Shown here: positions 1,818 through 61,548 of the stretch, one piece after another
How positions within the stretch are numbered: position 1 is the first letter of the stretch
How the letters are laid out: every line of letters starts with the position of its first letter
Assembly (NCBI GenBank): GCA_022601595.1
Contig: JAJACI010000002.1
Coordinates: forward strand, 12,523-76,522
DNA length: 64,000 bases
Reading direction: 5' to 3'
From: Chlamydiia bacterium
GTDB taxonomy: Bacteria; Chlamydiota; Chlamydiia; Chlamydiales; 2-12-FULL-49-11
The notes under the pieces: model-generated
Told to the model about the DNA's origin: nothing
The model's input: the letters and a program-made list of their open reading frames with translations, nothing else
Database searches by the model: none
Position numbers and translations under genes: made by a program

Positions 1818-1877
1818 TATTTGAAAAGAATGGCTCGTAACTGTTATAAAACAATTCTCTAATTGGATATATAGAAT

Positions 1878-4800: not shown

Positions 4801-5939
4801 CAAACTATTTAAATGCATCTGCCCCTGCATCTAATGAATATAGCGCTTTAACCGATCTTCGTGGAAGCGCGGTAGCTGTTGGAGTAAACAGCGCCTCCCC
4901 TGCTAGAAATGCCTTTAGTACCTATGTAACGCAGATGGGAGTATTCTCCCTTAGTCATATAGTGGATAATTACCTCTCTGGAAAAAGGTTTTTTAATGCT
5001 CATGATGCCCCTGGTGAGATAACAGACATTTCCCTCTCCGGCAAAGATTTGCTCGCAGCAAATAAAAACTGGGGATATCCAGAAATAGAGATGAATAAAC
5101 CTGAGCATACTCTTTGGGCGAGCGGCTTTGTAGACTTTGCACGGCAAGATAGCGAGAGTCAAAATCTTCCTTTTGATTTTATATCCAGTGGCTTTATATT
5201 GGGATTAGACTCTCAAAGTGTTTTTAAAGATGATGTGGTAGGCGCCGCTTTTGGCTATGTCAACTCCCAGGTAGATGATAATGGCAATATGGGATCCTCA
5301 AGTATTTCCTCGTTTGCAGTATCCATATATGGTGATTATTTTTGGGAGTATTTTTATTTCCAGGGGGCGCTGTGGGGAGTCTCCCACCAAATCAACAGCA
5401 ATAGAAAGATCTCCTATCCGGGTGTACAAACCAAAGCATCGAGTAGATTTAGTGGCTGGCAGGTAGCTCCTCATTTAGAATTTGGTTTTACCTTTGGATC
5501 ATCCCTATTTGAAGTGCAACCATACGCCTCCTTTGACTATGTATACAACTGGGAAGATAGCTACGAAGAAACCGGCGCTCTCAATTTAAATATGAGGGTA
5601 AAAGCTCAAGAGTCTTCGATGTTACAAACGCAAATTGGGATGAAGTTTTTTCAATCAACTTTTATATCCTCTGGCCGCTTTGGTATGAAAGAAGGTATTA
5701 GTTATATTAACCGTACTCCGTTCGAGACAGGCACCATTACAACCTCTATTTTTGGAGCTACCGATTTTGTCTCTTTAAGATCTTTTACCGAGTCACAAAA
5801 TCTTGGCGCCTTAGATATAGAAATGTTTTTCCAAGTAGGAAAAGAAAAAAATACCACCATTTCCCTTGCATATGAAGGTCAATATGGAGATCAGTATATC
5901 TCCAATGAATTAATCCTTACCCTCTCTCATATTTTTTAA
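1878..5939 (+). CDS. Autotransporter / Pmp-like outer membrane protein (1353 aa)
   Basis: Signal-peptide-like N-terminus MKKALFVLFFVGFTSIQA. Many copies of the autotransporter-associated beta-strand repeat (GTL.L.G.NTYTGGT.I..GTL). Conserved PGNSIGTITVG...IEFD segment and a beta-barrel-like C-terminus ending LSHIF. Confidence 0.9.
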   Translation: MKKALFVLFFVGFTSIQAVPFTVTNDSDFAPGSFRIQAGNAGADAFNILDFDGDYTIAIEDPVIPLNSAFTIDFSTHDITFSGGTANPGLSITNGVTPTLTSSDNTSSLTINVNIGETLAPGGFIITDKANVEFSGVNTFTGGITIQVDELISQGSVILSNNQGLGTGNVLFAQGTLHLNDTITMANAIDLSVGIGARQINVAGGGSATVSGNMIGASSQTLYKLGNGTLFLTGVNTSSSPITISEGTLAYKDGGLSSSTGDVLINNTTSLDISAISASGTTVADLSAVSGTTIVLGGKSLTFGTSSSTEIAAIVSGSGGSLVKIGDGTVTLSGVNTYTGGTSLDNGSLSLSNNAALGTGDLTMQSDTTLLFDGVTSLANNIIFNEAGTSSLNIGAGETATLDGIISGVGTFEKQNEGTLQLESANTYSGGTALTDGTIILNNNTAMGSGALTFTNGTLQVDGGITAGNTITLGSGTSRTISVLTGDIATLTGVISGPGSPPLIKSGEGTLNLSAVNTYTGATTISQGTLAYTGAGLPSATGDMLIQGTSTFNISAITSDQATVGNLTLSSGASLVLGSKSLTFGGDSDTNLEGVISGSGGSLIKTGDSVYTLSGTNTYTGGTTLNGGTLVLDNNSALGGGGALDMSDGTTLTLMNEIDASNNISITSQGTRSFNVDLVSTAVIDTGTLSGVISGAGSLEKTGEGTLVLSGENTYSGGTTISQGILEVSGSLFNTGSVTVNGSSSFDMSEVTSALTIGSLEAASGSTIELGTKSLTFGGSNNTTIAGVIEGDSGSSLTKIGTGSVTLSGVNTFDETMTVSGGTLIVNGTLPGSVTMGTSTTLKGTGTIGEEVSVASGASIRPGNSIGTITVGTLTLDTGSTTSIEFDDTSTSLIKVTGAADIAGTLHLIFDQGNYPLTGSYQILTGAPVIGTFSAITGDVTGFDFSLSYSTTDVLLLFTKVIPTAGLTGNILKFANYLNASAPASNEYSALTDLRGSAVAVGVNSASPARNAFSTYVTQMGVFSLSHIVDNYLSGKRFFNAHDAPGEITDISLSGKDLLAANKNWGYPEIEMNKPEHTLWASGFVDFARQDSESQNLPFDFISSGFILGLDSQSVFKDDVVGAAFGYVNSQVDDNGNMGSSSISSFAVSIYGDYFWEYFYFQGALWGVSHQINSNRKISYPGVQTKASSRFSGWQVAPHLEFGFTFGSSLFEVQPYASFDYVYNWEDSYEETGALNLNMRVKAQESSMLQTQIGMKFFQSTFISSGRFGMKEGISYINRTPFETGTITTSIFGATDFVSLRSFTESQNLGALDIEMFFQVGKEKNTTISLAYEGQYGDQYISNELILTLSHIF

Positions 5940-5956
5940 CCTTTGGATAGTCTCCT

Positions 5957-8900
5957 ATGAAAAAATTTCTTGTAATACTATTTTTCACCATTTTTGGACT
6001 TGTCCAAATAGAGGGTTATGAAGTGACTAGCGGAGATGATGCTGGTGCTGGCACGCTTCGTGAAGGATTAAACACAGGAAGCAGCGGCGATACCTTTACT
6101 TTTAGCGGCGATTTTTCTATTCCTATTACTTCTGCGGCTTTACCTTTTGATTATATAAATACCATTGATGTGGGAACAAATACCATTAGACTTACAACAG
6201 ATACCCCTCCTTATGGCGTGGTCTTTGGCGGCGGAGGAACGGTCACTTCTACAATAGATGGTACAGGACTACTTACCGTAGATGTTGTAGTATCAGAAAC
6301 AGGCGGCACAACTGGGTCCTTTATCAAAACAGGATCGTCGATATTTTCTCTTGATACGGCAAATACCTTTACCGGCGGCGTAGCTCTACAGGAAGGAACC
6401 CTTCTACTTACAAACAGCACAGGACTTGGTACAGGCGATCTGACTATTAGTGAAGATGCTATCTTATTAGTAACAGGAGGAATCAATGTTGCAAATAGTA
6501 TCGATCTAACCGGATCGGGCGAACGAGAAATTACTGCCTTAGCTGCTACAGATATTGGGACCTTATCAGGGATTATTAGCGGAGATGCAAATGCCTTGCT
6601 GTTAAAAACAGGAGCTGGAGAGCTTACCCTTTCTGGCGCAAATACCTTTCCAGGTGGCGTAGCCCTACAAGAAGGAACCCTTATTGTAGGCAATAATATA
6701 GCACTAGGTTCTGGTACCCTTGATTTAACAAATGACGGCACCGCCGCAACCAACTTTGAAATAAGCGATGGGATAACTGTGACAAACCCTATTACCATAG
6801 GTGGCGCCGAAGTAAAAAATATAGAAGTTGGAACGGGAGATACAGCAAACTTATCAGGAGTGATTAGCGGCGCCTCAGGCACAGCCTTGTATAAAACAGG
6901 TGACGGAACCCTTACATTAAGTGCCGCAAATACCTATTCTACCGGAACCATAATTAGCGCCGGTACATTAGCTCTTACAGGATCGCTAGATAGTACAGCA
7001 GATGTAACCGTCAATGGTTCTGCCATTTTCGATATTAGCGCAGCAGCATCTGCGCCTACTATTGGGGCGTTAGAGGCAGAGTCTGGGACGTTGCTAAAAT
7101 TAGGAGCTAAAAGCTTAACCTTTGGAACAAACGACGCTACCAAAACCATTGCAGGAGTGGTTAGCGGATCTGGAGGATCTTTGATCAAACAAGGGACCGG
7201 ATCGGTAACTTTTTCTGCCACAAATACCTTTACCGGAGGAGTAACATTAAATGCTGGAACCATTGTCCTGGATAATAATGCCGCGCTGGGAACAGGCTCT
7301 CTTACCATGGCGCCGCTCACTACACTTACTACCAATCCAGGGATCACCGCTGCTAATAAAATTGCCTTAAGCACTGCTGGTTCTAGAGATTTTACTGTTG
7401 GGGCAGGAACAACTGGGACCCTCTCTGGCATTATTAGCGGATCAGGAGGGCTTGAAAAGAAAGATTCAGGAACACTTACCCTTTCTGGCGCAAATACCTA
7501 TAGCGGCGGAACCGTTATCACTGAAGGAACCTTAGCCCTCAAAGGATCCCTTCTAAAAACAGGTGATGTAACTATCAATAACTCCTCCTCGTTAGATATT
7601 AGCGAGGTCACAGCAGCCCTTACCATCGGATCCTTAAATGCTGCAAGTGGATCTACAGTGAAATTGGGAACAAAGTCTTTGACCTTTGGAACAGATAGCG
7701 ATGCGGTAATTGCAGCAATTGTTAGTGGAGATACAGGATCTTCTTTGAACAAAAAAGGAACAGGAACCGTTACCTTTTCAGCGGTAAATACCTTTGCAAA
7801 TACATTGACCGTATCGGCAGGAACAGCGGCTATAAACGGCACTCTACCAGGCGCTGTAACGGTGAAAAGCTCTGCAGCTGTAAAAGGAACGGGAACCATC
7901 GGCGGCAAACTTACCGTTGAAAGCGGAGCCGCATTTACCCCAGGCAACTCTATTGGCACCATCACAGTAGGAAGCCTCTCTTTAGACTCCGGCTCTACAA
8001 CAAATATAGAATTTGATCCAGCAACCAGCTCGCAAATAAAAGTTACCAATTCTGCCACCCTTGCAGGAACCTTAAACTTAACAAATAATCCAGGCGATTA
8101 TCCCCTTACCGGTAGTTATTTATTCTTAACAGCAGATTCTATCAGCGGCACTTTTGATTCCATTACCGGAGGACATCAAGAATTTATTTTTTCTGTAGAT
8201 TATACCTCAACCAGCGCTACCTTACTTTATAGTAGCCCTATTGCCACCGGAGGACTTACAGGAAATATATTGACCTTTGCAAATTACTTAAATGCTTACT
8301 CTCCTGTAACAGATGAATTTGTTGCCTTATCAGAACTTTCTGGGCAAACATTATACAATGGAATCAATAGCACCTCCCCGGCTAGAAATACCTTTAACAC
8401 TTATACCTCACAGATCGCTCTATTTTCACTAAGCCAAAAGGTAAGCAACTACCTAACTGATAAAAGATTTTTCAGCTCTCATGATACCTCATTGAATATC
8501 GCAGATATTTGCTCGTCTAATAATGACCATTTGATTGCAGTAAACTCCTATTGGGATGATGCTGAATATAAAAGGGCCGAGCCTACCTACGCCTTTTGGA
8601 TCAATGGTTTTGCCGATTTTGCAGGCCAGGGAGGCGCCAATCAAAACGTTCCTTTTGATTTTATTACCGGCGGCGTGCTGGCCGGCTTAGACTGGGAAAG
8701 CTCTTATAAAGAACATATCCTAGGCATCGCTATTGGCTATGCAAACTCCCAGATTACCGATCACGCAAGGATGGGATCTTCTGAAATCTCCATGCTGGCC
8801 ACTTCCCTCTATGCAGACTTTTCCTATCACTCCTTTTATGCCCAAGCAATGTTTTGGGGCGTTTTTAATCTTATTGATAATCGCCGAATCATTTCCTACC

Positions 8901-9421
8901 CTGGGGTGAATACAAAAGCGAAAGCTGAATACTGCGGATGGCAAATCAATCCCCACATAGAACTTGGCTATAGCCACAGATCACAAATATTTGAAGCACA
9001 ATCCTATATCGCCTTTGACTACGTACAAAATGAACAAGATAGCTATAGTGAAAAAGGCGCTGGAAATCTAAATATGAGGGTGAAAAAACAAAAATCCTCC
9101 ATGCTACAAACCCAGCTGGGAATAAGATTCTACCAAGGAATCGATCGGCCCCATTACCGCTTTGGTATCAAAGAAAACATTAGCTTTATCAACCGAATAC
9201 CTTTTGATACAGGCACCCTAACTACCGCCATTTTTGGCGCTGATAACTTTGTAACCCTTCACTCTTTTACACAAACACAAACTCTTGGCGCCATTAATAT
9301 AACCCTTTTCACCCAAGTAGGAAAAGAAAAAGACACCATCATTTCCCTTGGCTACCAAGGAGAATTTGGAAACCAATATATTTCAAACAGCGCAAGCCTC
9401 ACCATCTCTACAGAATTTTAA
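5957..9421 (+). CDS. Autotransporter / Pmp-like outer membrane protein (1154 aa)
   Basis: Signal-peptide-like N-terminus MKKFLVILFFTIFGLVQIEG. Same passenger repeats. C-terminal domain closely alignable to ORF 3..1817 and ending ISTEF. Confidence 0.9.
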   Translation: MKKFLVILFFTIFGLVQIEGYEVTSGDDAGAGTLREGLNTGSSGDTFTFSGDFSIPITSAALPFDYINTIDVGTNTIRLTTDTPPYGVVFGGGGTVTSTIDGTGLLTVDVVVSETGGTTGSFIKTGSSIFSLDTANTFTGGVALQEGTLLLTNSTGLGTGDLTISEDAILLVTGGINVANSIDLTGSGEREITALAATDIGTLSGIISGDANALLLKTGAGELTLSGANTFPGGVALQEGTLIVGNNIALGSGTLDLTNDGTAATNFEISDGITVTNPITIGGAEVKNIEVGTGDTANLSGVISGASGTALYKTGDGTLTLSAANTYSTGTIISAGTLALTGSLDSTADVTVNGSAIFDISAAASAPTIGALEAESGTLLKLGAKSLTFGTNDATKTIAGVVSGSGGSLIKQGTGSVTFSATNTFTGGVTLNAGTIVLDNNAALGTGSLTMAPLTTLTTNPGITAANKIALSTAGSRDFTVGAGTTGTLSGIISGSGGLEKKDSGTLTLSGANTYSGGTVITEGTLALKGSLLKTGDVTINNSSSLDISEVTAALTIGSLNAASGSTVKLGTKSLTFGTDSDAVIAAIVSGDTGSSLNKKGTGTVTFSAVNTFANTLTVSAGTAAINGTLPGAVTVKSSAAVKGTGTIGGKLTVESGAAFTPGNSIGTITVGSLSLDSGSTTNIEFDPATSSQIKVTNSATLAGTLNLTNNPGDYPLTGSYLFLTADSISGTFDSITGGHQEFIFSVDYTSTSATLLYSSPIATGGLTGNILTFANYLNAYSPVTDEFVALSELSGQTLYNGINSTSPARNTFNTYTSQIALFSLSQKVSNYLTDKRFFSSHDTSLNIADICSSNNDHLIAVNSYWDDAEYKRAEPTYAFWINGFADFAGQGGANQNVPFDFITGGVLAGLDWESSYKEHILGIAIGYANSQITDHARMGSSEISMLATSLYADFSYHSFYAQAMFWGVFNLIDNRRIISYPGVNTKAKAEYCGWQINPHIELGYSHRSQIFEAQSYIAFDYVQNEQDSYSEKGAGNLNMRVKKQKSSMLQTQLGIRFYQGIDRPHYRFGIKENISFINRIPFDTGTLTTAIFGADNFVTLHSFTQTQTLGAINITLFTQVGKEKDTIISLGYQGEFGNQYISNSASLTISTEF

Positions 9422-9724: not shown

Positions 9725-9884
9725 GGAGACTCTGATAAACGAGCAGTTTTATAATCTCCCAGATTTCTGATACATCCTATTTTTCGTGGCGCCCCATCCC
9801 TACAGGGATGCCGCTTACTCCAAAATCGGATTTATTTCAAAAAATCTGAAGAAATTCTAAAAAGTGCAGTTTATCAGACTCTCC
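9725..9884 (-). mobile_element. Family A 160-bp foldback MITE-like element, copy A1
   Basis: Termini ggagactctgataaac ... gtttatcagactctcc, internal near-palindrome catccctacagggatg, flanked by ttaa/ttaa. Near-identical to seven other 160-bp copies in the window. Confidence 0.85.
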
Positions 9885-10382: not shown

Positions 10383-10441
10383 TACAGTTTTTTTTGCAAC
10401 CCATTTTGTATATCGGATGAGGCGTGTGCGTGTAGGCATTC
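10383..10441 (+). repeat. Truncated family C element (left arm plus apical motif only)
   Basis: tatcggatgaggcgtgtgcgtgtaggcattc matches the stem end and apex of C3 (tcggatccgacgtgtgcgtgtaggcactc), but no complementary right arm follows. Confidence 0.35.
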
Positions 10442-10460: not shown

Positions 10461-10733
10461 GATTTTAGAGAATTTTTTCAGCGCTTTTTTTCTATAGGAG
10501 ACTCTGATAAACTACACTTTTTAGAATTTCTTCAGATTTTTTGAAATAAATCCGATTTTGGAGTAAGCGGCATCCCTGTAGGGATGGGGCGTAGCGAAAA
10601 ATGGAATTTATAAGAAATCTGGAAAATTATAAAACTGTCCGTTTTTCAGAGTCTCCTATATAGGATCTGACGTGTACATACAGGTACTCTAGGATCCTAT
10701 ATAGAAAAAAAGCGCCCAAAAAAACTCTAAAAT
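10461..10733 (+). repeat. Family C long hairpin C1, left arm interrupted by element A2
   Basis: Left arm gattttagagaattttttcagcgctttttttctata[A2]tataggatc pairs with right arm gatcctatatagaaaaaaagcgcccaaaaaaactctaaaa. Apex at 10668-10692 is tgacgtgtacatacaggtactctag. Confidence 0.6.
10497..10656 (+). mobile_element. Family A 160-bp foldback MITE-like element, copy A2
   Basis: ggagactctgataaactacac...ccgtttttcagagtctcc, flanked by tata/tata. Sits inside the left arm of hairpin C1. Confidence 0.9.
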
Positions 10734-10884: not shown

Positions 10885-10994
10885 TTTTGATGAGTTATTT
10901 TTTAGAAGATCTTTTCTAATTCGGATCCGACGTGTGCGTGTAGGCACTCTAGGATCCGAATTAGTGAAAGATCTTCCAAAAATAACCATCAAAA
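10885..10994 (+). repeat. Family C long hairpin C3, abutting the tmRNA 3' end
   Basis: Arms ttttgatgagttattttttagaagatcttttctaattcggatcc / ggatccgaattagtgaaagatcttccaaaaataaccatcaaaa. Apex at 10929-10951 is gacgtgtgcgtgtaggcactcta. Ends 1 nt before ssrA. Confidence 0.7.
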
Positions 10995-11410
10995 TGGAGG
11001 TGGGGAGATTCGAACTCCCGTGCTAGATAACTCCACAACTATATCTACATACTTAGTCACCCGTTAATAACCTTATGAAATGACGACAGATGACAAGCAC
11101 ATGTAACATAAGGCTTTTTCTAAATCTTGAATAGTTGGGCCGAAAAAGAATTCCCATCTATTCATACCGTGATATATTACGATGAGAATAAGACCTCTCG
11201 GTCCGAATCTTAAACCATCGACGAAACTACCTTTCGGTAATTAAGCTGCAACTGAAGCGGCATTTTCAGCAGTAAACTGCTCAAAATTACCAACTATAAC
11301 ATTACTGTTTTTTGGTGCATTTATTTTTTTTCCGGTTTTTTTAGGAGGCCAACCAGAACCCTCCGTATGCAATAATTACTTATACCATCCAGGCGATACC
11401 ACTCACCCCC
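10995..11410 (-). ncRNA. ssrA: tmRNA (transfer-messenger RNA)
   Basis: 5' GGGGGUG pairs with 3' CACCUCC, giving a 7-bp acceptor stem with a G3:U wobble and discriminator A; CCA is not encoded. T-arm is GGGAG-UUCGAAU-CUCCC. Internal tag frame 11318->11241 reads GCA CCA AAA ... GUU GCA GCU UAA = APKNSNVIVGNFEQFTAENAASVAA. The segment before the resume codon (GGUUGGCCUCCUAAAAAAACCGG) resembles the E. coli ssrA PK1 region. Confidence 0.9.
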
Positions 11411-11959: not shown

Positions 11960-12240
11960 GTCGGGTCTCCTAATAAAAAGCGTCCCTTAAATAACGGATT
12001 ATCTAAGCTCTGCTATAACTTTCAAATTTACTTTACACATCTAAAAAACAAAAGATGGTCTTCTATTTTTCAAACGATAGAGGAAGTATAGACTATGGAT
12101 GTATTTAATGATAGCAAGAAGATTTTCCCTTTTTTTCTTAAAAAATATTTTTTAATGTGTGATTTGCATAACTATAGTATCTTTTAATGTAGCTCTGTTG
12201 TATCCTATATGTGAAATATAAATTACACAAGGCAACTTTC

Positions 12241-14058
12241 ATGGGTTTTTCCAAATTTGAACTAGACGAAAAAATTATTAAGGCAATTACAGACGCAGGT
12301 TATACAAAACCTTCGAAAATCCAAGAACAAGCCATCCCTGTTGCTTTAGAAGGAAAAGATGTCAGAGCATCTGCTCAAACAGGTACTGGAAAAACAGCAG
12401 CATTTCTAATACCAGCGCTTCAAAAAATTATTGACTCTCCTAAACAAGGGGGAAAAGGGCCTAAACTTCTGGTTCTTACTCCAACAAGAGAGCTTGCTCA
12501 ACAAATTACTGTACAAGCGGAAAAATATAGTAAACATTTGAGAAACATTAGATCTGTTTGTGTAGTGGGCGGAGTTCCTTACCATAAGCAACAAGCTAAA
12601 CTAAACCGTCCTTATGACATATTGATTGCAACACCTGGTCGTCTTATAGATTACATGAACAGAGGTAAAGTTAATTTTTCAAACCTGGAGATGATTGTTC
12701 TTGATGAAGCAGACAGAATGCTTGATATGGGATTTTCAGAGCCTGTGGAAGAAATTATTTCAGCAACACCGCAAAACAGACAAACATTATTGTTTTCTGC
12801 GACTCTAAAAGGAGAGGTGCTAAAACTTTCCCAAAGATTTATGAAAGATCCAGTAGAGATTGTTATTCACTCAGATCATGAAAAACATGAAAACATTGAT
12901 CAAAAACTTCTTTACGTAGACAACCTAGGCCATAAAAATGATTTGCTTGATCATATCCTTAATGCAGAAGACTTGAAATCAGCTATTATTTTCACTGCAA
13001 CTAAAAGACATTGTGATGAGCTGGTTGATGAGCTGGAAGATAAAGATTTTGCAGCGGGGGCGCTACATGGAGATATGAACCAAAGACAAAGATCTCGTAC
13101 AATTAAAATGCTTAAAGAGGGAAGGTTTAATATTCTTGTTGCAACAGATGTAGCAGCTCGTGGTATTGATATCTCTGATATTTCTCATGTAATTAACTTT
13201 GACCTTCCAAGAGATACTGAAGATTACGTGCATAGAATTGGTAGAACAGGGCGTGCTGGTAAAACAGGTATTGCCATCTCTTTTGCTGGATCAAAAGACA
13301 TTCACATGGTTCCAAGAATTGAAAAATACACAGGACAAGCAATTAATGTGATAGAAATTGCAGGTCTCGAACCTCGCTGTAAACCAAAAGCTACCGGTGA
13401 GAAAAAATCAAAGTCTAGAAAAAGAGGCGGCGGATCTCGTTCAGGTAATAGATCAGGCGGCGGAGACAGAAGATCATCAGGCGGAAGAGGCGGATACGGT
13501 GGAGGCGAAAGAAGATCAGCTCCTAGGAGTGACTCTCGCGACAGGTCTGACAGAGGAAACTCTTCCGGGGGAGAAAGAAGATCATCTCCTAGAGGAGAAT
13601 CTCGTGGTGGTTTCGGTGGAGAAAGAAGGTCTGCACCAAGAAGTGACTCTCGCGACAGGTCTGACAGAGGAAACTCTTATGGCGGCGGTGAAAGACGGTC
13701 ATCTCCAAGAAGTGACTCTCGCGACAGGTCTGACAGAGGAAACTCTTTCGGCGGTGACAGAAGATCATCAGCACCTAGGGGCGGGTCTGAGAGAAGATCC
13801 TCAGGTGGATACGGCGGAAGAAGCGAATCTTTCGGCGGAGCTAGAAAGACCACTAAGAGTGGCAATTCTAAAGACAGGTCTGAAAAAAGAAGTTTCGGAG
13901 AAAAAAGCACTTTCGGCAACCGTTCTAAGTCAGATAGCCGTAAAGGTGGATTTTCCTCAGAGAAAAGATCATCAGGTGGCGACAGAAGATCATCAGGCGG
14001 CAGAAAGCCTTCCTCTTTTAAAGGTGGCGGCGGAAAGTCTCATAGAGGAGCTAGATAA
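12241..14058 (+). CDS. DEAD-box ATP-dependent RNA helicase with long Arg/Ser/Gly-rich C-terminal tail
   Basis: Q motif GYTKPSKIQ, AQTGTGKT, PTRELA, DEAD, SAT, HRIGRTGRAG. The ORF opens at GTG 12211, but ATG 12241 (MGFSKFELD) is the likely start. Confidence 0.9.
   Translation: MGFSKFELDEKIIKAITDAGYTKPSKIQEQAIPVALEGKDVRASAQTGTGKTAAFLIPALQKIIDSPKQGGKGPKLLVLTPTRELAQQITVQAEKYSKHLRNIRSVCVVGGVPYHKQQAKLNRPYDILIATPGRLIDYMNRGKVNFSNLEMIVLDEADRMLDMGFSEPVEEIISATPQNRQTLLFSATLKGEVLKLSQRFMKDPVEIVIHSDHEKHENIDQKLLYVDNLGHKNDLLDHILNAEDLKSAIIFTATKRHCDELVDELEDKDFAAGALHGDMNQRQRSRTIKMLKEGRFNILVATDVAARGIDISDISHVINFDLPRDTEDYVHRIGRTGRAGKTGIAISFAGSKDIHMVPRIEKYTGQAINVIEIAGLEPRCKPKATGEKKSKSRKRGGGSRSGNRSGGGDRRSSGGRGGYGGGERRSAPRSDSRDRSDRGNSSGGERRSSPRGESRGGFGGERRSAPRSDSRDRSDRGNSYGGGERRSSPRSDSRDRSDRGNSFGGDRRSSAPRGGSERRSSGGYGGRSESFGGARKTTKSGNSKDRSEKRSFGEKSTFGNRSKSDSRKGGFSSEKRSSGGDRRSSGGRKPSSFKGGGGKSHRGAR
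13528..13746 (+). repeat. Intragenic repeats in the helicase tail (36-nt identical core x3)
   Basis: agtgactctcgcgacaggtctgacagaggaaactct occurs at 13528-13563, 13642-13677 and 13711-13746, encoding SDSRDRSDRGNS each time. Confidence 0.8.
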
Positions 14059-15478: not shown

Positions 15479-15638
15479 GGAGACTCTGATAAACGAGCAG
15501 TTTTATAATCTCCCAGATTTCTGATACATCCTATTTTTCGTGGCGCCCCATCCCTACAGGGATGCCGCTTACTCCAAAATCGGATTTATTTCAAAAAATC
15601 TGAAAAAATTCTAAAAGGTGTAGTTTATCAGAGTCTCC
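15479..15638 (-). mobile_element. Family A 160-bp foldback MITE-like element, copy A3
   Basis: Full-length copy flanked by ctaa/ttaa. Its right terminus supplies the last three codons and the TGA stop of ORF 15628..16251. Confidence 0.9.
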
Positions 15639-18506: not shown

Positions 18507-18666
18507 GGAGACTCTGATAAACTGCACTTTTTAGAATTTCTTCAGATTTTTTGAAAGGTATTCTATTTTGGAGTAAGCGGCATCCCTGTAGGGATGGGGC
18601 GTAACGAAAAATAGGATTTATAAGAAATCTGGGAGATTATAAAACTGCTCGTTTTTCAGAGTCTCC
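18507..18666 (+). mobile_element. Family A 160-bp element, copy A4 (tandem with A5)
   Basis: Full-length copy with left flank ttaa, separated from A5 by only taa. Confidence 0.9.
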
Positions 18667-18669
18667 TAA

Positions 18670-18829
18670 GGAGACTCTGATAAACTGCACTTTTTAGAAT
18701 TTCTTCAGATTTTTTGAAATAAATCCGATTTTGGAGTAAGCGGCATCCCTGTAGGGATGGGGCGTAACGAAAAATAGGATTTATAAGAAATCTAAGAGAT
18801 TATAAAACTGTCCGTTTTTCAGAGTCTCC
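18670..18829 (+). mobile_element. Family A 160-bp element, copy A5
   Basis: Full-length copy in direct tandem with A4; right flank taaa. Confidence 0.9.
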
Positions 18830-39670: not shown

Positions 39671-39674
39671 AATA

Positions 39675-39704
39675 GATACGTCATAAGGAACGGAAATGAC
39701 TATA
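39675..39704 (+). repeat. Family B right-end fragment
   Basis: gatacgtcataaggaacggaaatgactata resembles the B right terminus (atacg.catatgaaacggcaatgactat). Confidence 0.4.
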
Positions 39705-44155: not shown

Positions 44156-44315
44156 GGAGACTCTGATAAACTACACTTTTTAGAATTTCTTCAGATTTTT
44201 TGAAATAAATCCGATTTTGGAGTAAGCGGCATCCCTGTAGGGATGGGGCGCCACGAAAAATAGGATTTATAAGAAACCTGGAAAATTATAAAACTGTCTG
44301 TTTATCAGAGTCTCC
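44156..44315 (+). mobile_element. Family A 160-bp element, copy A7
   Basis: Full-length copy. Its right end abuts the TAA stop (44316-44318) of the Sel1-like ORF. Confidence 0.9.
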
Positions 44316-45355: not shown

Positions 45356-45515
45356 GGAGACTCTGATAAACTACACTTTTTAGAATTTCTTTAGATTTTT
45401 TGAAATAAATCCGATTTTGGAGTAAGCGGCATCCCCGTAGGGATGGGGCGAAACGAAAAATAGGATTTATAAGAAATCTGGAAAATTATAAAACTGCTTG
45501 TTTTTCAGAGTCTCC
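45356..45515 (+). mobile_element. Family A 160-bp element, copy A8
   Basis: Full-length copy in direct orientation relative to A7, on the other side of the Sel1-like gene. Confidence 0.9.
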
Positions 45516-53987: not shown

Positions 53988-54117
53988 TCTATTAGAATCT
54001 CCCTTTATTAATTTCTCATGGAGTATATGTAAACATTTGAAAATAAGCTAGAATTTTTTAATCCCTTGTGAGAATTTTTCTTTCCTTTGACTAATGAGGC
54101 AGAAAGAGGTATTTTAT

Positions 54118-54192
54118 AGTCATCACCGTTTAAAATGGCGTACTATTCAATGAATTTTTGAGGGAGATACGTCATATGAAACGGCAATGACT
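54118..54192. mobile_element. Family B derivative B1 (rearranged, two right-end-like halves in inverted orientation)
   Basis: agtcatcaccgtttaaaatggcgtactattcaatgaatttttgaggg + agatacgtcatatgaaacggcaatgact, 29 nt upstream of the priA ATG. Confidence 0.6.
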
Positions 54193-54221
54193 ATCGTAGA
54201 AGTCAATAATAAGGAATACAC

Positions 54222-56438
54222 ATGACTCTCTTTGTAACGGTGCTGCTTGACAAAGGTATCAAAAAAGCGCTCACCTATTCGGTACCTGATCATCTTCGAT
54301 CATTGATTGCCGAGGGAAAGCGCGTTTCTGTTCCTATTCAAAAAAGATCTGTAAAAGGAACCATTTTGTCATTGCTTAATAAGGCGCCTAGGTATCCGGT
54401 AAAAGATGTGATGGAGGTGATCTCTGAGGAGATTATCAATGATGATTTAAAAAAGCTTGGGTCTTGGATGTCTGATTATTATGCCACTGCTCTCCCTTTT
54501 GTGTTAAAAACTATGCTTCCAGGAAGTCTTCGTAAGGATATGAAGGTGAAAAAGCAGTATACCGTAAATACGGTGCTGCGCGGGGAAAAGTTAATCGAGT
54601 ATACAGCATCCATTAGGGAAAAGCATCCCAAACGGGCAGCGGTGTTAGATATTCTTTTAAAAAATAAAAAGGGGATCTTCCTTTCAAAGCTTGTTGAAAA
54701 AGATGTTTCTGTGTCTGCGATACATACCCTTGAAAAAAAAGGTATTATCAAAAAGTCTTTGGTGGAGGTAGATCGTAGCATATTAGAAGATGTTCCTTTT
54801 TTCAAAACTAGTGCTAAGGTATTAAACGCTCCCCAGGCAAAAGCATTTAAGGAGATTGAGGCGAGTTTAGAAGCAAATACTTTTAAGACTTTTCTCTTAC
54901 ATGGTATTACAGGAAGCGGAAAAACCGAAGTCTACCTCCAAGCGATAGAAAAAGCGCTCTCGCAAAATAAGGGAGTGATCTTATTAATACCAGAGATTGC
55001 TCTCACCGAGCAAACGGTGGAGCGTTTCAAGCACCGCTTTGAAGATAGGATCGCGGTATTGAATTATCGATTGAGCGATGGGGAAAAGACAGATGCATGG
55101 AAAAATATTGCCAAGGGAAAAATCCCCATTGTCATAGGCGCCCGTTCGGCTATATTTTCTCCTATGCCTAATGTTGGGCTGATCATTGTTGATGAGGAGC
55201 ATGAGCTTTCTTATAAGCAAATTGATGAGATGCCTTGTTATAATGCTCGTGATATTGCAGTAGTCCGTGGATCGTTTACTGGTAGTACCGTGATACTAGG
55301 AAGCGCGACACCCAGCTTAGAAAGTGTCTACAATGTGATGGAAAAGAAATATCATTACCTCCAGATGAACCAAAGAGCGGCTGCTAAAAACCCTCCTACC
55401 ATTAAGCTGATCAATATGGAAGAGGAAAGAGAAAATGGCAAAGGGTTTACCATGCTCTCTCAAACACTTCTTACAGAAATTAAAAAACGTATAGATGTTG
55501 GCGAGCAGGTAATCCTCTTTTTAAATAGGCGAGGCTACTTTTCCTGCCAAGTCTGCTCCTCTTGTAACGAAACTATCTCTTGTCCGTCGTGTGATTCTTC
55601 ACTCACCTACCACCGTGGAGAAAAAATCCTTGCCTGCCATCTATGTGGCTATGAAAAAAAAGCTCCTATCACAAAATGTCCCAAATGTGGAGAGAGGGAA
55701 ACGCTAAAATACAAAGGGCCAGGAACCGAGCAGGTAGAGCGCTCTTTACACGCCATATTTCCAGAAATACGCACCCTCCGAATGGATCGCGATACCACCA
55801 AACACAAAGGCTCTCATGAAACGATCTTAAAAGAGTTTCGTAGCGGCAAAGCAGATCTATTAATAGGCACACAGATGATTGCCAAAGGGCTTGATTTTCC
55901 TCTGGTCACCCTATCTGCTGTTATTGGTGCCGATAGTTCATTGCATATCCCAGACTACCGCTCCACAGAGTCCCTCTTCCAAGTGATGACGCAAGTGGTA
56001 GGCAGATCTGGGCGTGCAGAGCTGCCCGGGCTTGCGCTCATCCAAACCTACTATACCAATCACCCCGTGATGCAGGCGGTGCTTAATGACGACTTCAAAG
56101 GGTTTATAAAAGCCGAGCTCGAAGATCGAAAATTATGTAACTACCCGCCCTATACAAAAATATGCAAACTGGTATTTACAAGTACCGACAAGATCGCTGC
56201 TGAAAAGACCGCAGAGAACTTTTATAACTACCTAAAGGTCTCACTTCCAAAAACAGTAACTCTATACAAACCTATGCCTTGCGGATATGCTAAGATCAAA
56301 GATAAATTCCGCTTTCAAATTCTTCTAAAATCTCCGCACACAGGGCAGCTATGCTCCATCTTGAAAAACCATCCCATCAAGATCCCTACAAAGGTGCGCT
56401 TCTTAATAGACATCGGCGCCACATCCACCTTCTCATGA
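54222..56438 (+). CDS. priA: Primosomal protein N' (replication restart helicase PriA)
   Basis: GITGSGKTEVY, DEEH, a Cys-rich zinc-binding insertion (CQVCSSC...CPSC...CHLCG...CPKCG) and helicase C-terminal motifs. Confidence 0.9.
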   Translation: MTLFVTVLLDKGIKKALTYSVPDHLRSLIAEGKRVSVPIQKRSVKGTILSLLNKAPRYPVKDVMEVISEEIINDDLKKLGSWMSDYYATALPFVLKTMLPGSLRKDMKVKKQYTVNTVLRGEKLIEYTASIREKHPKRAAVLDILLKNKKGIFLSKLVEKDVSVSAIHTLEKKGIIKKSLVEVDRSILEDVPFFKTSAKVLNAPQAKAFKEIEASLEANTFKTFLLHGITGSGKTEVYLQAIEKALSQNKGVILLIPEIALTEQTVERFKHRFEDRIAVLNYRLSDGEKTDAWKNIAKGKIPIVIGARSAIFSPMPNVGLIIVDEEHELSYKQIDEMPCYNARDIAVVRGSFTGSTVILGSATPSLESVYNVMEKKYHYLQMNQRAAAKNPPTIKLINMEEERENGKGFTMLSQTLLTEIKKRIDVGEQVILFLNRRGYFSCQVCSSCNETISCPSCDSSLTYHRGEKILACHLCGYEKKAPITKCPKCGERETLKYKGPGTEQVERSLHAIFPEIRTLRMDRDTTKHKGSHETILKEFRSGKADLLIGTQMIAKGLDFPLVTLSAVIGADSSLHIPDYRSTESLFQVMTQVVGRSGRAELPGLALIQTYYTNHPVMQAVLNDDFKGFIKAELEDRKLCNYPPYTKICKLVFTSTDKIAAEKTAENFYNYLKVSLPKTVTLYKPMPCGYAKIKDKFRFQILLKSPHTGQLCSILKNHPIKIPTKVRFLIDIGATSTFS

Positions 56439-56465: not shown

Positions 56466-56502
56466 GGAGAGTCTGATAAACGAGCAGTTTATCAGACTCT
56501 CC
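56466..56502. mobile_element. Miniature family A derivative (termini only, 37 bp)
   Basis: ggagagtctgataaacgagcagtttatcagactctcc, flanked by tata/tata. Confidence 0.7.
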
Positions 56503-56510
56503 TATAATAT

Positions 56511-56663
56511 AGTCATTACCGTTTCATATGGCATATCTTCTGCTAATTTTTGTAGCTTTTTGATAAATGCATCTCACAAATATTTAAAATATTAGCTTGC
56601 TAAACTCTCCAAAATTCCCTCAAATATTCATTGAACAGTACGACATATGAAACGGTAACGACT
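56511..56663 (+). mobile_element. Family B 153-bp MITE-like element, copy B2
   Basis: agtcattaccgtttcatatg ... catatgaaacggtaacgact inverted termini. Same length and nearly the same interior as B3. Confidence 0.85.
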
Positions 56664-56773
56664 ATAGTATAAATAAAATTTTAACAAGCCCCCCCCTATC
56701 TAGCGCAATAGATTTTTCTTTTCATAAAAGAGCTTTTAGGTTAAGATTTTATTAAAAAAGAAAAGAAGGATCT

Positions 56774-57548: not shown

Positions 57549-59009
57549 CTACCTAGGTTTTTGCAAAATTTCTTTTACAATCCCCTTAACCTTGGAAGCT
57601 ATATTTTTTTCAAGATCACAAGTTTTAATAACTCTATCAGACTCTCTGAGATGCTCTTTTTTATTCACTCTCTTATCATAAAATATATCGCCAGGATGCC
57701 TACCTGGTTCAAAGGCAGTATCTGTACCTTCAAGATGAGAATGTAACTGAGGAAATCTTGATTTTAACCCTAAACTTAGATGATATTTATGATGACGTTG
57801 TTGGTACATAATAGATTTGCGTGCAGATATCGCCTCAGATAAAGAACCATCTCCTGTTACTAAAACCTCGTCCTCCGATGCCTTCATGAGGCCTATGCTA
57901 TCTTTATGAGAAATACTTCCCATGATCACTCTCATTGTTTTTAAATTAGAGGAATCTCGTACCCTAGCATGAGGGTTCATTTCTCTAATAGGTAAAAATT
58001 TCACTGCTACAATTTGATCTGAAGACTTATCATATCTGGCAACTTCAAGCATAAATATCCCACTAGAAACCAGTTCTCTTTGCACCTCTACTTGTAATAA
58101 AGATGAATGAGTACATTCTGCCCCTCCAATGGCAGTATTACCAAGATATTTACTTTGATCCCCTGCTTCTGCTAAAATATCATGATCCCCCATTAGAAAA
58201 ATGGTCATATTTTTTTTTTGCAACTCAGCATTTGTTGAAGCTCTGGGCATACTACCTTGCATTTTTGCAAGTGCTAGCAAATATGTTATGGCAGACGGCG
58301 CGCCATCCCCTCCCCTTTCTTTGATTCCTTCTTCATTGGAATAGCCAAAAAATAGTCTATTTTCGCTTGAAAAATCGTTGCATCTTCTCTCTGTTGCCTT
58401 TCCTCCTAATATCGCCTGTTGAATTCCAGCGCTTACCTCAGGTAAAGCCGAAAGCCTCTGCTTTGGATCTTTCATCTTACTGCTCCACTTAACCAACTCC
58501 TTATCTAGAAATATTCCTTTTTCAGGGGGTCTGTCAGAGCACCCGGGAACGATACTTCCATCTGCAATCAAACCGGTATTTATCGCGCCTTCACCATGAG
58601 TAACACCATATTCCCCCCAATCCAATATAGGAACAACCCTTTTACCCAAATGCTCAGGCAACACCCTTTCTTTTAAAAAATCTCCTTCAAAAGCAACGAT
58701 CATATCAGGTTCAAATTTTCCAATATTTTTTAATGGATGAAATTCTACCCCAGGAAAATAACTATCTAAATCCCTTCCTTTGTCATTATCCATAAATACT
58801 TGCATGTTCTCACGAGGTATCTTCTTGCTAAAAGTCTTATGAAAAAATTGCTGAATCCTGTCAACAGATGCATAATCTCCCATACCCCCTAAATCCTGAC
58901 CAATAATTGCTATTTTAGGCTTTCCTTGTATAGGAGAAGTAGAAGGAGGCCTTGCTTTAGATCCACCTCCACCATGGGCTGAAGATGTCTTAGGGCCAAT
59001 ATTTTCCAT
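57549..59009 (-). CDS. Hypothetical protein (486 aa), effector-like
   Basis: Long ATG-to-stop ORF with a low-complexity N-terminus (SSAHGGGGSKARPPSTSP). No firm motif recognised. Confidence 0.6.
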   Translation of the reverse strand: MENIGPKTSSAHGGGGSKARPPSTSPIQGKPKIAIIGQDLGGMGDYASVDRIQQFFHKTFSKKIPRENMQVFMDNDKGRDLDSYFPGVEFHPLKNIGKFEPDMIVAFEGDFLKERVLPEHLGKRVVPILDWGEYGVTHGEGAINTGLIADGSIVPGCSDRPPEKGIFLDKELVKWSSKMKDPKQRLSALPEVSAGIQQAILGGKATERRCNDFSSENRLFFGYSNEEGIKERGGDGAPSAITYLLALAKMQGSMPRASTNAELQKKNMTIFLMGDHDILAEAGDQSKYLGNTAIGGAECTHSSLLQVEVQRELVSSGIFMLEVARYDKSSDQIVAVKFLPIREMNPHARVRDSSNLKTMRVIMGSISHKDSIGLMKASEDEVLVTGDGSLSEAISARKSIMYQQRHHKYHLSLGLKSRFPQLHSHLEGTDTAFEPGRHPGDIFYDKRVNKKEHLRESDRVIKTCDLEKNIASKVKGIVKEILQKPR

Positions 59010-59410
59010 AACTAACCAAGTTTTTTATTCTAACAATAAATATAAATTAATAACTATCAACAAATAAATATTATAAATGAATTGTTGATGTCCATAAATA
59101 AGAATAATGCTAAAATATATGTAAATGAATAAAAGGATTTACAACATGGAAAGTATAAACAATTCTTTAAACAAATACAACCCTGACATACCATATGCAG
59201 AGCTTCAGAGAGATCCCTCTGAACAAGTAAATATAAAACAGGTAAGTTATATAAGCTCAAGCACTAAAGAAAATACTTTATACCGAATATTTCAAAGTCG
59301 ACAAGCTAGACGCGCCACCTCAAATACTTAAATTTTTTTTTATACCGTAATTTGGTAATAGACCCACAAGAAGCCTGATCAACTCTTACCAGAATAGACT
59401 CTTGCATAGT

Positions 59411-59684
59411 GAGATGATAGTAAATGGTGTTTTTTGGGATGAGATCTTTCCTATTTTGGGGCGATAGTATACAGTCATTTCCGTTTCATATGACATATCT
59501 TCTGCTAATTTTTGTAGCTTTTTGATAAATGCATCTTGCTAATATTTATAATATTAGCTCGCTGAATTGATCAATAACCCCTCAAAAATTCATTGAATAA
59601 TACGCCATATGAAACGGCAATGACTATACAAAAGCATGGTACTCAGAGCCCCAAAATAGTCAAAGAGATCGCACAAAAAACACC
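59411..59684 (+). repeat. Family C long hairpin C7, apex interrupted by B3
   Basis: Left arm gagatgatagtaaatggtg...ctattttggggc, apex gatagtatac[B3]atacaaaagcatggtactcaga, right arm gccccaaaatagtcaaagagatcgcacaaaaaacacc. Confidence 0.75.
59473..59625 (+). mobile_element. Family B 153-bp MITE-like element, copy B3
   Basis: agtcatttccgtttcatatg ... catatgaaacggcaatgact, flanked by atac/atac. The paralogous site in C8 (59901-59904, gtac) is empty. Confidence 0.9.
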
Positions 59685-59730
59685 CTCTCCGATGAAGATA
59701 AATACGTTAAAAGACTTTTTGTGCAGGAAA

Positions 59731-59790
59731 GTTTTTATTTTTTCTGTCGATAGCGTACGTGTGGTACTCGGAGACAGAAAAAAGGAAAAA
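59731..59790 (+). repeat. Family C hairpin C6 (short arms)
   Basis: ttttttctgtc-gatagcgtacgtgtggtactcgga-gacagaaaaaa, with a partially paired extension. Confidence 0.5.
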
Positions 59791-59958
59791 TAGACCCACA
59801 AGAAGCCCGATCAACTCTTACCAGAATAGACTCTTGCATAGTGAGATGATAGCAAATGGTGTTTTTTGGGATGAGATCTTTCCTATTTTGGGGCGATAGT
59901 GTACAAAAGCATGGTACTCAGAGCCCCAAAATAGTGGAAGAGATCGCACAAAAAACAC
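59790..59958 (+). repeat. Segmental duplication, copy 2 (uninterrupted)
   Basis: Near-identical to 59358-59472 plus 59626-59684. Confidence 0.85.
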
Positions 59959-59974
59959 TATTTGCTATCATCTC
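59843..59974 (+). repeat. Family C long hairpin C8, overlapping the lysS stop codon
   Basis: 52-nt arms gagatgatagcaaatggtgttttttgggatgagatctttcctattttggggc / gccccaaaatagtggaagagatcgcacaaaaaacactatttgctatcatctc. Apex at 59895-59922 is gatagtgtacaaaagcatggtactcaga. Confidence 0.8.
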
Positions 59975-61548
59975 ATCATGGGGAAGAACAATACATCGCG
60001 TATTGAGGTCTCTCCTGTAAAGAGCATCACTAGGCGATCAATCCCTATTCCATTTCCTGAGCATGGGGGCATTCCTTGGCAGATGGATTCTATAAAATCT
60101 TCATCTAGTGGTGATGCTTCATCGTCGCCTGCCTCTAGTTGCTTTTGTTGATCTTCTAGGAGTTTTCTTTGGAGGATTGGGTCGTTTAGCTCTGAGTAGG
60201 CGTTACATGCCTCCATTCCGAGCATAAACGCTTCAAAGCGTTCTACCATCCCTTCTCTGGCATCGCTTTCATTTCTATGAAGTTTACATAGCGGAGTGGT
60301 TTCTATTGGATGATCGATAATAAAGTGCGGCTGAATAAGAGATTCTTCTGAGAACTCTTCAAACATGTAGGCAATTAGATTACCGCGCGCTGCTTTTTTA
60401 AGTTTATCAGGGTGAATCATACTCTTTTCTTTCAGCTCTTTTTTCATATCATCATCTGACATGGTATCCACATCGTATTTGCCGTAGGTTTTGATGGCAT
60501 CTTTCATGGTCATTCGTATCCATGGTGCTTTAACATCAATTTGATGGGCATTTCCTTTACGATCTTTTCTCTCTCCAATTGCGGTTGTTCCAAAAATTTC
60601 TTGAGCTAAATAAGCGTATAAATTTTCGGTAAAGCGCATCATATCCTTATAATCCCAGTAAGAGGCATAAAATTCTACGCTTGTAAATTCTGGGTTATGT
60701 GTTGCATCGATCCCTTCATTACGGAAGATCTTTCCAATTTGATAGACTTTAGGAATGCCTCCCACTACTAATTTTTTAAGGGGCAGTTCTGTTGCAATAC
60801 GTAAAAAGAGGTCTTTCTTCAAAGCGTTTAGATGGGTGGTAAAGGGCTTTGCCTGAGCGCCGCCATAAAGACTTTCCAGGATAGGTGTTTCCACACCCAT
60901 AAACCCCGCATCTTCTAGGTATCTTCTAAGTAGAGAGGTTATCTTGCTACGCATTTTAAAAGTATCAATCACTTCTTTGTTAGCAATCATATCAAGCCAC
61001 CGTTTACGATAGCGAGATTCTTTATCCACAAGGCCTGCGTGTTTATCAGGAAGAGGTAATAAAGACTTGGTAAGAAGCGTTACCTCTGAGGCAAAAATGG
61101 TGAGCTCCCCTTTTTTTGTTCTAAAAAGGTGCCCTTCTACCCCTATAATATCCCCTAAATCTACCATCTTTTCTAAAAACTTATGAGCTGAAACGTCTAG
61201 ATCATCTTTTAAACCATGCACTTTTGTAGCATCTCTATTAAACAGTACCTGTATACGCGCGCCATCTTCTTGGATAGAGGCGAAGATATTTTTTCCCATT
61301 GATCTATGCAAAACAATGCGCCCTGATGCTTTTACATGATCGCTCCGCTTTTCTTTTCCATCTTCAAAAGACCCCACCTCATCATCTTCAGTATAATTAC
61401 CCAAAACATCTTCAATTGTATGGGTATTTTCATAATTATGGGGGTAGGGATCTACTCCTAGATCTCTTATTTCTTCAAGCTTGCGTAGCCTATTCTTATA
61501 TTCCTCATACTCGTGATATTCCACTTTCTTTTCATTTGTCGCTTGCAT
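59968..61548 (-). CDS. lysS: Lysyl-tRNA synthetase, class II
   Basis: OB-fold N-domain plus class II catalytic core (FRNEGID, GGIGIDRLVM). Confidence 0.95.
   Translation of the reverse strand: MQATNEKKVEYHEYEEYKNRLRKLEEIRDLGVDPYPHNYENTHTIEDVLGNYTEDDEVGSFEDGKEKRSDHVKASGRIVLHRSMGKNIFASIQEDGARIQVLFNRDATKVHGLKDDLDVSAHKFLEKMVDLGDIIGVEGHLFRTKKGELTIFASEVTLLTKSLLPLPDKHAGLVDKESRYRKRWLDMIANKEVIDTFKMRSKITSLLRRYLEDAGFMGVETPILESLYGGAQAKPFTTHLNALKKDLFLRIATELPLKKLVVGGIPKVYQIGKIFRNEGIDATHNPEFTSVEFYASYWDYKDMMRFTENLYAYLAQEIFGTTAIGERKDRKGNAHQIDVKAPWIRMTMKDAIKTYGKYDVDTMSDDDMKKELKEKSMIHPDKLKKAARGNLIAYMFEEFSEESLIQPHFIIDHPIETTPLCKLHRNESDAREGMVERFEAFMLGMEACNAYSELNDPILQRKLLEDQQKQLEAGDDEASPLDEDFIESICQGMPPCSGNGIGIDRLVMLFTGETSIRDVLFFPMMR

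Follow-up and report, generated by a model that had tools for sequence, protein, structure and literature searches.

A non-autonomous inverted-repeat transposon at the apex of one of two tandem hairpins next to lysS in a chlamydial genome

The repeat array between lysS and a hypothetical gene

The window (the whole 64,000-nucleotide stretch of chlamydial DNA analysed here) contains an intergenic repeat array, bounded on one side by the 3' end of lysS and on the other by the start of a gene for a hypothetical protein. A block composed of a leader and a family C hairpin is present twice in this array, and the hairpin of copy 1 is occupied by an element of another family, B. The features are as follows, in window coordinates.

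57549-59009, minus strand: gene for a hypothetical protein of 486 aa, no Pfam match; its start lies 350-960 bp from the upstream repeat array
59357-59471, plus strand: left part of copy 1 (leader, 59357-59404, and 5' arm of the C hairpin), ending with the left TA (59470-59471)
59472-59626, plus strand: family B element B3, 155 bp if the duplication is taken as TA, with inverted repeats CAGTCATTTCCGTTTCATATG / CATATGAAACGGCAATGACTA
59627-59683, plus strand: right part of copy 1 (right TA, 59627-59628, and inner 3' arm of the C hairpin)
59684-59788, plus strand: spacer between the copies, with a small hairpin (about 59728-59792) that has the same conserved apex motif
59789-59980, plus strand: copy 2 (leader, 59789-59836, and complete 144-nt C hairpin, 59837-59980)
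59968-61548, minus strand: lysS (lysyl-tRNA synthetase, Pfam tRNA-synt_2), with the repeat array directly 3' of it

The filled block (59357-59683) and the block at 59789-59958 are 96-97% identical, save for 157 extra bases at the hairpin apex of the former. The left half of the repeat covers 117 nt (59357-59473 versus 59789-59905, 97% identity) and the right half 57 nt (59627-59683 versus 59902-59958, 96% identity). In copy 2 the two halves are contiguous and the apex, GATAGTGTACAAAAGC (fuller read gatagtGTACaaaagcatggtactcagag), is intact, with GTAC at 59901-59904 and an unoccupied TA at 59902-59903. Copy 1 reads, in order, gatagtATAC (ATAC at 59469-59472), 153 nt (59473-59625), ATAC (59626-59629) and aaaagcatgg. 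The within-genome pair of a filled and an empty site that the first-pass annotation had described, with a repeated block and an intact apex in copy 2, is thus present.

The copy 1 hairpin has no outer 3' arm, as its likeness to copy 2 ends at 59683. The C hairpin of copy 2 has 32-nt outer arms that are 91% complementary (DNA fold -44.3 kcal/mol, z -12.9), and its outer 3' arm reaches 59980, covering the last lysS codons and the stop codon. B3 is likewise a long palindrome, though an imperfect one, along its entire length (DNA fold -28.7 kcal/mol, z -6.9); when both are folded, the inserted element is therefore a hairpin nested within the C hairpin. Promoter and terminator scans of 58900-60100 gave signals that were not above those of shuffled sequences. 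The sole match at gathering score in an Rfam scan of the window was tmRNA (10992-11410), with none for family B; between 59000 and 60000 only far sub-threshold matches to miRNA-precursor models were observed, which reflect the long hairpins.

Genes identical to those of the window occur in assemblies and MAGs of PRJNA742377 (for example JAHZIM, JAHZIS, JAJACR and JAJACL), and the MAGs of this project are sponge-associated Chlamydiae of the family Parasimkaniaceae (Simkaniales), of about 1.28 Mb and 38% GC (PMC9666466). The filled/empty pair could in principle be an artefact of short-read metagenome assembly across repeats, and some contigs lend themselves to this explanation: most of the others break within the hairpins, and in JAJACR010000017.1 (L003/L011) window 59357-59660 is fused exactly to 59936-60010. 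In the latter, lysS borders immediately on one full-length hairpin, which is occupied by B, and 275 bp are absent, a form that is the outcome expected either of recombination or of assembly collapse between the 57-nt repeats. Two contigs, L005 and L007, match the window at 100% identity along 488 and 516 nt and span lysS, copy 2, the spacer and the 3' arm of copy 1 into B, although these two may be the same reads put through two pipelines. L012 begins exactly at the right end of B, and its 12 kb leftwards are 100% identical to the window. An artefact is nevertheless extremely improbable. There is not a single base difference among L005, L007, L012 and the 79-kb source contig, all contigs that extend to the B junctions, L003 included, have the same junction sequences, and a tandem pair of hairpins with this spacer was recovered independently in two JGI assemblies of a sister lineage.

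Family B: copies, ends and target duplication

Three full B copies, one internally deleted copy (77 bp) and two solo ends were found in about 102 kb of DNA from this species, or about 8% of a genome of about 1.28 Mb. Apart from B3, they are the following.

39673-39702, plus strand: solo B right end (..AATGACTA), beginning 3 nt past the stop codon of a PreP-like peptidase gene and followed by TA (39703-39704)
54117-54193, no strand assigned: B54, internally deleted, 77 bp, 28 nt upstream of the priA start codon; TA (54115-54116) on the left, TCG and then TA (54197-54198) on the right
56510-56664, plus strand: B56, second full copy, 155 bp, 86% identical to B3, between TA (56508-56509) and TA (56665-56666) and abutting a family A terminal hairpin
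L019, positions 5688-5840: third full copy, in DNA of the same species from beyond the window start
L003, positions 468-501: second solo B right end

These loci are mutually unrelated, and all B copies seen are intergenic. The 24-kb sequence of a paralogous autotransporter locus in this species contained no B copy.

The termini of the B3 core, AGTCATTTCCGTTTCATATG and CATATGAAACGGCAATGACT, form an inverted repeat in which 1 of 20 positions is mismatched, and when the arms are read from one base further out 22 of 26 positions match, in agreement with the inverted termini reported for the insert by the first-pass annotation. The terminus, allowing up to three mismatches, occurs six times in the window, for zero expected in shuffled sequences. 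The full copies B3 and B56 have terminal matches of 22-23/26 and the 77-bp copy of 21/26. Across the family, the consensus of the ends is TAGTCATTnCCGTTTCATATG ... CATATGAAACGGnAATGACTA with TA on both outer sides, the inverted ends being about 21-26 bp long. Full copies are 84-89% identical in pairwise comparisons, that is, about 14% apart. They have 31-32% GC and stop codons in all six frames, with no open frame longer than 27 aa; B3 itself has 31% GC and a longest stop-free stretch of 22 aa.

Bacterial MITEs are generally non-coding elements of less than about 200-300 bp that have inverted ends, duplicate their target and occur as several dispersed copies (PMC2229807). Family B shares all these properties, namely the size, the lack of coding capacity, the inverted ends, the duplication and the dispersed copies. 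Neither the window ORFs nor the annotated genes of the other loci of the species (about 102 kb, about 8% of the genome) yielded a transposase domain. As B is non-coding and no such domain is present in the loci examined, it is non-autonomous, and a partner, if there is one, lies elsewhere. In conclusion, family B is a non-autonomous terminal-inverted-repeat transposon (MITE), AT-rich and non-coding.

The direct repeat that flanks B3 is literally 5 nt long (ATACA, 59469-59473 and 59626-59630), so that B3 alone cannot fix the boundaries of the element. A 4-bp duplication, ATAC, had been proposed in the first-pass annotation. This repeat is probably accidental to B3. The flanks of the other copies are TA/TA (B56), TA/TA (L019 copy) and TA/TC (B54), those of B3 also being TA/TA. 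In the empty sites described below the junction contains one TA each, and GTAC instead of ATAC stands at all five empty apices. Nine of the ten B termini abut TA, a dinucleotide with a frequency of 0.079 in the window (P about 1e-9). When B54 is compared with its empty orthologues, TA alone can have been duplicated, and the right junction contains three extra bases (TCG). It is therefore likely that the target duplication of family B is TA (2 bp). For B3 this presupposes that 59469 changed from G to A and that a C replaces the T that the family has as first element base; for B54 it leaves a 3-nt irregularity, the right flank being TC, G and then TA.

Alternatively, a 153-bp core (AGTCATT...AATGACT) would have generated a 4-bp duplication, the target in copy 1 having changed from GTAC to ATAC before the insertion. 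The ATAC/ATAC repeat around B3 is perfect, and under this scheme the G-to-A change is the sole substitution required at B3, with no unusual base at the terminus; hence B3 taken alone slightly favours 4 bp. However, the corresponding 4-mers are ATAT/ATAG at B56, ATAT/ATAC at the L019 copy and TTAT/ATCG at B54, so that tabulating the B target sites in about 102 kb revealed no consistent 4-bp duplication at the other copies. Furthermore, the empty orthologues of B54, TTTTAGAAG (L017) and TTTTATAAG (L018), cannot give a matching 4-bp duplication. All right flanks start with AT and all left flanks end with TA followed by T or C, a pattern that a conserved terminal base plus TA explains better than variable 4-bp targets do. 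The family as a whole thus favours TA, and we regard a 4-bp duplication as distinctly unlikely. A 3-bp TAC duplication was rejected, as it would demand asymmetric ends and does not fit the other B copies, and so was the absence of any duplication (ends A(C/T)AGTC...GACTAT), which leaves B54 unexplained.

Empty sites and history of the paired hairpins

A sister lineage was reached via a LysS cluster mate and is represented by loci L014 and L015 (JGI samples 3300060682 and 3300060835). Its PriA protein is 95% identical to that of the window, and its priA gene 85.6% identical at the DNA level. Both loci are collinear with the window: the alignment leads from lysS across copy 2 and the spacer into the 3' arm of copy 1, as far as 59627, and resumes at 59473, its two parts sharing 4 nt. 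The spacer is conserved, within a collinear alignment of 479 nt with L014. Both hairpins of the sister lineage are empty, with the apex GATAGTGTACA (GTGTACA) and no footprint. The B3 site is consequently represented by five empty sites (copy 2 of the window and four orthologous ones) and one filled site. The sites orthologous to B54 are also empty in two related lineages, where they read GTATTTTAGAAGG (L017) and GTATTTTATAAGCC (L018). At B56, the DNA downstream of priA could not be aligned in L017 and L018, and for the L019 copy the contigs of the sister lineage start inside the first autotransporter gene. No B sequence was found in about 45 kb of DNA from related lineages.

Long palindromes located between short direct repeats are readily deleted. 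One may therefore ask whether B was ancestral in the hairpin and disappeared from the empty sites through precise excision or through slippage at the short ATACA repeats; B3 does lie between 5-nt direct repeats. Loss would require that identical events, none leaving a footprint, took place in copy 2 as well as in the two sister-lineage hairpins. It also has to accommodate B elements that carry their own inverted ends at unrelated loci, and a second B site that is likewise empty in two related lineages. This explanation is already close to refuted, and we consider it almost certainly wrong. The empty orthologous sites at B3 and B54 indicate that B was inserted at these positions and not lost from the empty ones. 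Judged from the aligned loci, the empty apex is the ancestral state, and B spread in the window lineage after its split from the sister lineage. The initial proposal of a B insertion into one apex of a paralogous hairpin pair is in this way supported by five empty sites.

Comparison of the hairpins within and between lineages gave a more complex history than a single duplication. Copy 1 and copy 2 of the window are 96.5% identical. Each is 75-83% identical to its orthologues (both are 82.5% identical to copy 2 of L014 and 75-77% identical to copy 1 of L014), and the two copies of L014 are 74% identical to each other. Beyond 59683, copy 1 of the window resembles the L014 orthologue of copy 1 and not copy 2 of the window. 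Where differences between copy 1 and copy 2 can be polarised, copy 1 has the derived state. The presence of the tandem pair in both lineages, together with the closer similarity of the window copies to each other than to their orthologues, argues that the pair is old and that copy 1 was overwritten. On these alignments the tandem hairpin pair predates the lineage split, and about 171 bp of copy 1 were replaced recently from copy 2, via gene conversion or re-duplication. Had B3 been present already, conversion across the apex would have removed it; most simply, the insertion of B3 thus came after the homogenisation of copy 1. The first-pass annotation had placed the arrival of B after a segmental duplication. 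The relative timing was supported, and the simple recent duplication was not, as the pair is old and copy 1 was overwritten.

The following order of events would account for these observations. A tandem hairpin pair was already present in the common ancestor with the sister lineage. In the window lineage, copy 1 (the leader and most of the hairpin, about 171 bp) would then have been overwritten from copy 2. B3 would have entered copy 1 at the TA within the palindromic apex TGTACA, with duplication of this TA. Finally, copy 1 would have gained a few substitutions, including the G-to-A change beside TA that mimics a 4-bp repeat. Overall, insertion of a MITE after homogenisation of the paralogues and after the lineage split is very likely.

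Transposition, significance and known elements

Transposition of B would presumably depend on a DDE transposase acting in trans, which would bind the ends and cut out or copy the element; the 3' ends of the element would then be joined at staggered positions around TA, and gap repair would produce the duplication. In one B3 end TA is followed by CAGT, the Tc1-like ending. IS630/Tc1-mariner elements insert at TA and duplicate it (PMC2170065), and bacterial MITE termini typically carry TA (PMC2229807). Family B behaves accordingly in inserting at TA and duplicating it, although the flanks of B3 also read ATAC/ATAC. We lean towards a TA-duplicating DDE enzyme of the IS630/Tc1-mariner type, an assignment based on the TA rule; no IS630-family element or transposase with matching ends was found in about 102 kb of this species, and no element with these ends in the collections scanned.

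Several collections were scanned for the terminus or for B3. Among GTDB representatives (596 Gb), only two single matches at 19 of 20 positions were obtained, in a Bacillus and in a Ruminococcus, for about four expected by chance; the copies of the window itself were not among the matches, and the window species is thus absent from that collection. JGI metagenome contigs gave no match with the terminus and none with both inner termini separated by a gap. The IMG/VR scan gave no matches, and blastn of B3 against the PLSDB plasmids gave none. The supplements of PMC9666466 do not mention transposases.

An enzyme of another family that makes short duplications and favours palindromic targets was also considered. 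Duplications are 2-3 bp for IS30-type elements and 2-4 bp for IS5/IS427-type elements, and from B3 alone the duplication is 2-4 bp. The 6-bp target of B3, TGTACA, is moreover palindromic and occupies the tip of a 144-nt hairpin. However, the remaining reconstructed targets (ATAA-TA-GTAT, GTTA-TA-CAAA and TTT-TA-GAAG) share TA only and are not palindromes, which makes such an enzyme, for example of the IS30 or IS5/IS427 type, very unlikely. Only one of four B copies is located in a hairpin apex, so that a structural preference for such targets is not supported.

It had further been suggested that B may still be mobile. We found no support for this in either direction: the full copies are about 14% apart, and no transposase was detected in about 102 kb. 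Copy 1 devoid of B was present in none of the assemblies examined. In a bolder scenario, B would be an orphan that is still active, that expanded only in this species after the split, and that prefers TA at the tips of cruciform-forming palindromes and near other repeats; this combination we consider unlikely. If it were true, B would be one of at least three palindromic families that reshape intergenic regions, including promoter-proximal ones upstream of priA and of an autotransporter gene, and it would be the chlamydial counterpart of the Correia system of Neisseria.

The B elements form a new family of MITEs, from a chlamydial lineage that is uncultured. A limited full-text literature search found no description of MITE families in Chlamydiota. 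B works like classic bacterial MITEs, and it provides an ordinary, clean and well-supported example of transposition, with no new mechanism. The window contains at least three palindromic repeat families, in a symbiont genome of about 1.3 Mb. Two B sites are empty in the sister lineage, which dates these insertions; there is evidence of repeat-to-repeat gene conversion, and recombinational deletion is possible. Such repeats offer a handle on intergenic evolution in uncultured intracellular symbionts. In practical terms they call for caution, as they break and mis-join short-read MAG assemblies.

Two other types of palindromic repeats were ruled out. REP and REPIN elements are 20- to 40-bp palindromes with a GTAG or CGTC tag, without inverted ends or duplication, and are associated with a RAYT gene; B, with its 155 bp, inverted ends of about 21-26 bp and duplication, is not one of them. 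Palindromes derived from IS200/IS605 have neither inverted termini nor duplication and are inserted 3' of a fixed tetra- or pentanucleotide, which does not agree with the long inverted termini of B and the TA on both of its sides. Among the window ORFs, none had a Y1/HUH transposase domain.

IS1397 inserts into the loops of the palindromic units of REP/BIME sequences. A mobile element can in this way occupy the apex of a pre-existing repeated palindrome, as B3 does; unlike REP/BIME targeting, a hairpin apex is the site of only one of four B copies. MITEs of Coxiella, another obligate intracellular bacterium, are palindromic repeats of 100-200 bp that have likewise spread in a reduced genome. 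RPE of Rickettsia are similar to B in being palindromic repeats of 100-200 bp spread in a reduced intracellular genome (PMC2229807). They differ from it by in-frame insertion into genes, often without clear TA ends or duplications, whereas B copies are intergenic and have TA ends.

RUP of Streptococcus pneumoniae, for which mobilisation by IS630-Spn1 through the same mechanism has been proposed (PMC2229807), and ISY100 resemble B in their TA target and TA duplication (PMC2170065; PMC2229807). For ISY100, a member of the IS630 family, the mechanism is established, and the inverted repeats of about 24 bp are the sole cis requirement and suffice (PMC2170065); the inverted ends of B are of comparable length, about 21-26 bp.

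Correia elements (CREE/NEMIS) have TATAG ends, usually insert at TA, have no known transposase, and have been compared as filled and empty sites between strains (PMC2649163; PMC2229807). As in B, there are two size classes (153-157 and 104-108 bp, versus 153-155 and 77 bp for B), long inverted repeats that begin with TATAG, and a long-hairpin fold; insertion is mostly at TA, with duplication, and a cognate transposase is known for neither. The two differ in host, Neisseria versus Chlamydiota, and TATAG is the only sequence that they share. The published Correia patterns (TATAG[CT]GGATTAA..., PMC2649163) had no match in the window with up to three mismatches, which rules out B as a member of the Correia family. 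An IHF site, promoter activity and RNase III processing are features described for Correia elements but not for B. By analogy of size, ends and target, the Correia element of Neisseria is the closest analogue of family B.

Hairpins with a common apex at lysS and elsewhere

Several hairpins with quite different stems, in the window and at the sister-lineage locus L014, have in common the apex GAYRGYGTRC-N5-9-GGYACTCNRR, which is carried by the plus strand in every case listed:

10416-10441, plus strand, common-apex hairpin, partial
10655-10705, plus strand, common-apex hairpin
10898-10985, plus strand, common-apex hairpin
59728-59792, plus strand, common-apex hairpin
59837-59980, plus strand, common-apex hairpin (C2, the empty second C hairpin)
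L014, plus strand, both hairpins

Covariation was observed in the small apical helix (GTAC/GTAC versus GTGC/GCAC), the 5' strand of which is broken by the insertion of B3, the B copy in the first C hairpin. The common-apex hairpins lie directly 3' of the tmRNA gene and of lysS, both minus-strand, so they could have a role in termination or processing; alternatively, they could constitute a further repeat family. In a third lineage (L016 2740-3060, ENA ERZ23496875), whose LysS belongs to the same 90% cluster, the C-hairpin array is absent after lysS: the gene ends with ...ATGATGAGATAA, and the DNA beyond it is unrelated. In the window, these last lysS codons form part of the outer arm of C2.

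A shorter arrangement was found on the MAG contig JAJACR010000017.1 (L003 9786-10170, the same as L011), where 275 bp are missing and a single C hairpin, full-length and carrying B at the apex, is present. The sequence corresponds exactly to a fusion of window 59357-59660 with 59936-60010; this form arose either by genuine recombination between the 57-nt repeats of the two hairpin copies or by collapse in the assembly.

Family A and coding repeats

The window also contains a second MITE-like family, family A, about 160-180 bp long, with ends GGAGACTCTGATAAAC...GTTTATCAGAGTCTCC and flanks TAA, TTA or TATA. The following list of copies is partial, further copies being present in the window:

9725-9884, family A copy
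10497-10656, family A copy
15479-15638, family A copy
18507-18666, family A copy
18670-18829, family A copy
44156-44315, family A copy
45356-45515, family A copy
56466-56502, family A, ends only (37 nt)

The family includes one head-to-tail pair, and a 37-nt hairpin consisting only of its ends directly adjoins the B copy B56.

Other repeats are coding. Four autotransporter genes that carry PATR repeats and are arranged in tandem (window 3-9421 and L019 5870-9940) contain an internal repeat of about 290 nt that explains families D3, D6 and D7; a fifth paralogue is on a separate contig (L023). In the DEAD-box helicase gene (12211-14058), tandem degenerate repeats of the C-terminal tail (13429-14004; families D8 and D15) encode an Arg/Ser/Gly/Asp-rich low-complexity region.

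B copies near gene starts

The same B insertion in two assemblies of one project, JAHZIM (L019 5688-5840) and JAHZIS (L022 3-157), differs at 9 of 156 positions despite identical flanking DNA in the stretches shown, suggesting that B copies were joined into chimeras during assembly or exchanged sequence by gene conversion.

The first autotransporter gene has its ATG 29 nt downstream of the end of the L019 copy (region 5688-5872). The insertion point of B54 (region 54087-54225 of the window) directly follows a promoter-like TTGACT-17-TATTTT, conserved at the related-lineage loci L017 and L018, and the priA ATG is 28 nt downstream of B54. In view of these positions, the 5' UTRs or promoters of priA and of the first autotransporter gene may contain B or be altered by it.
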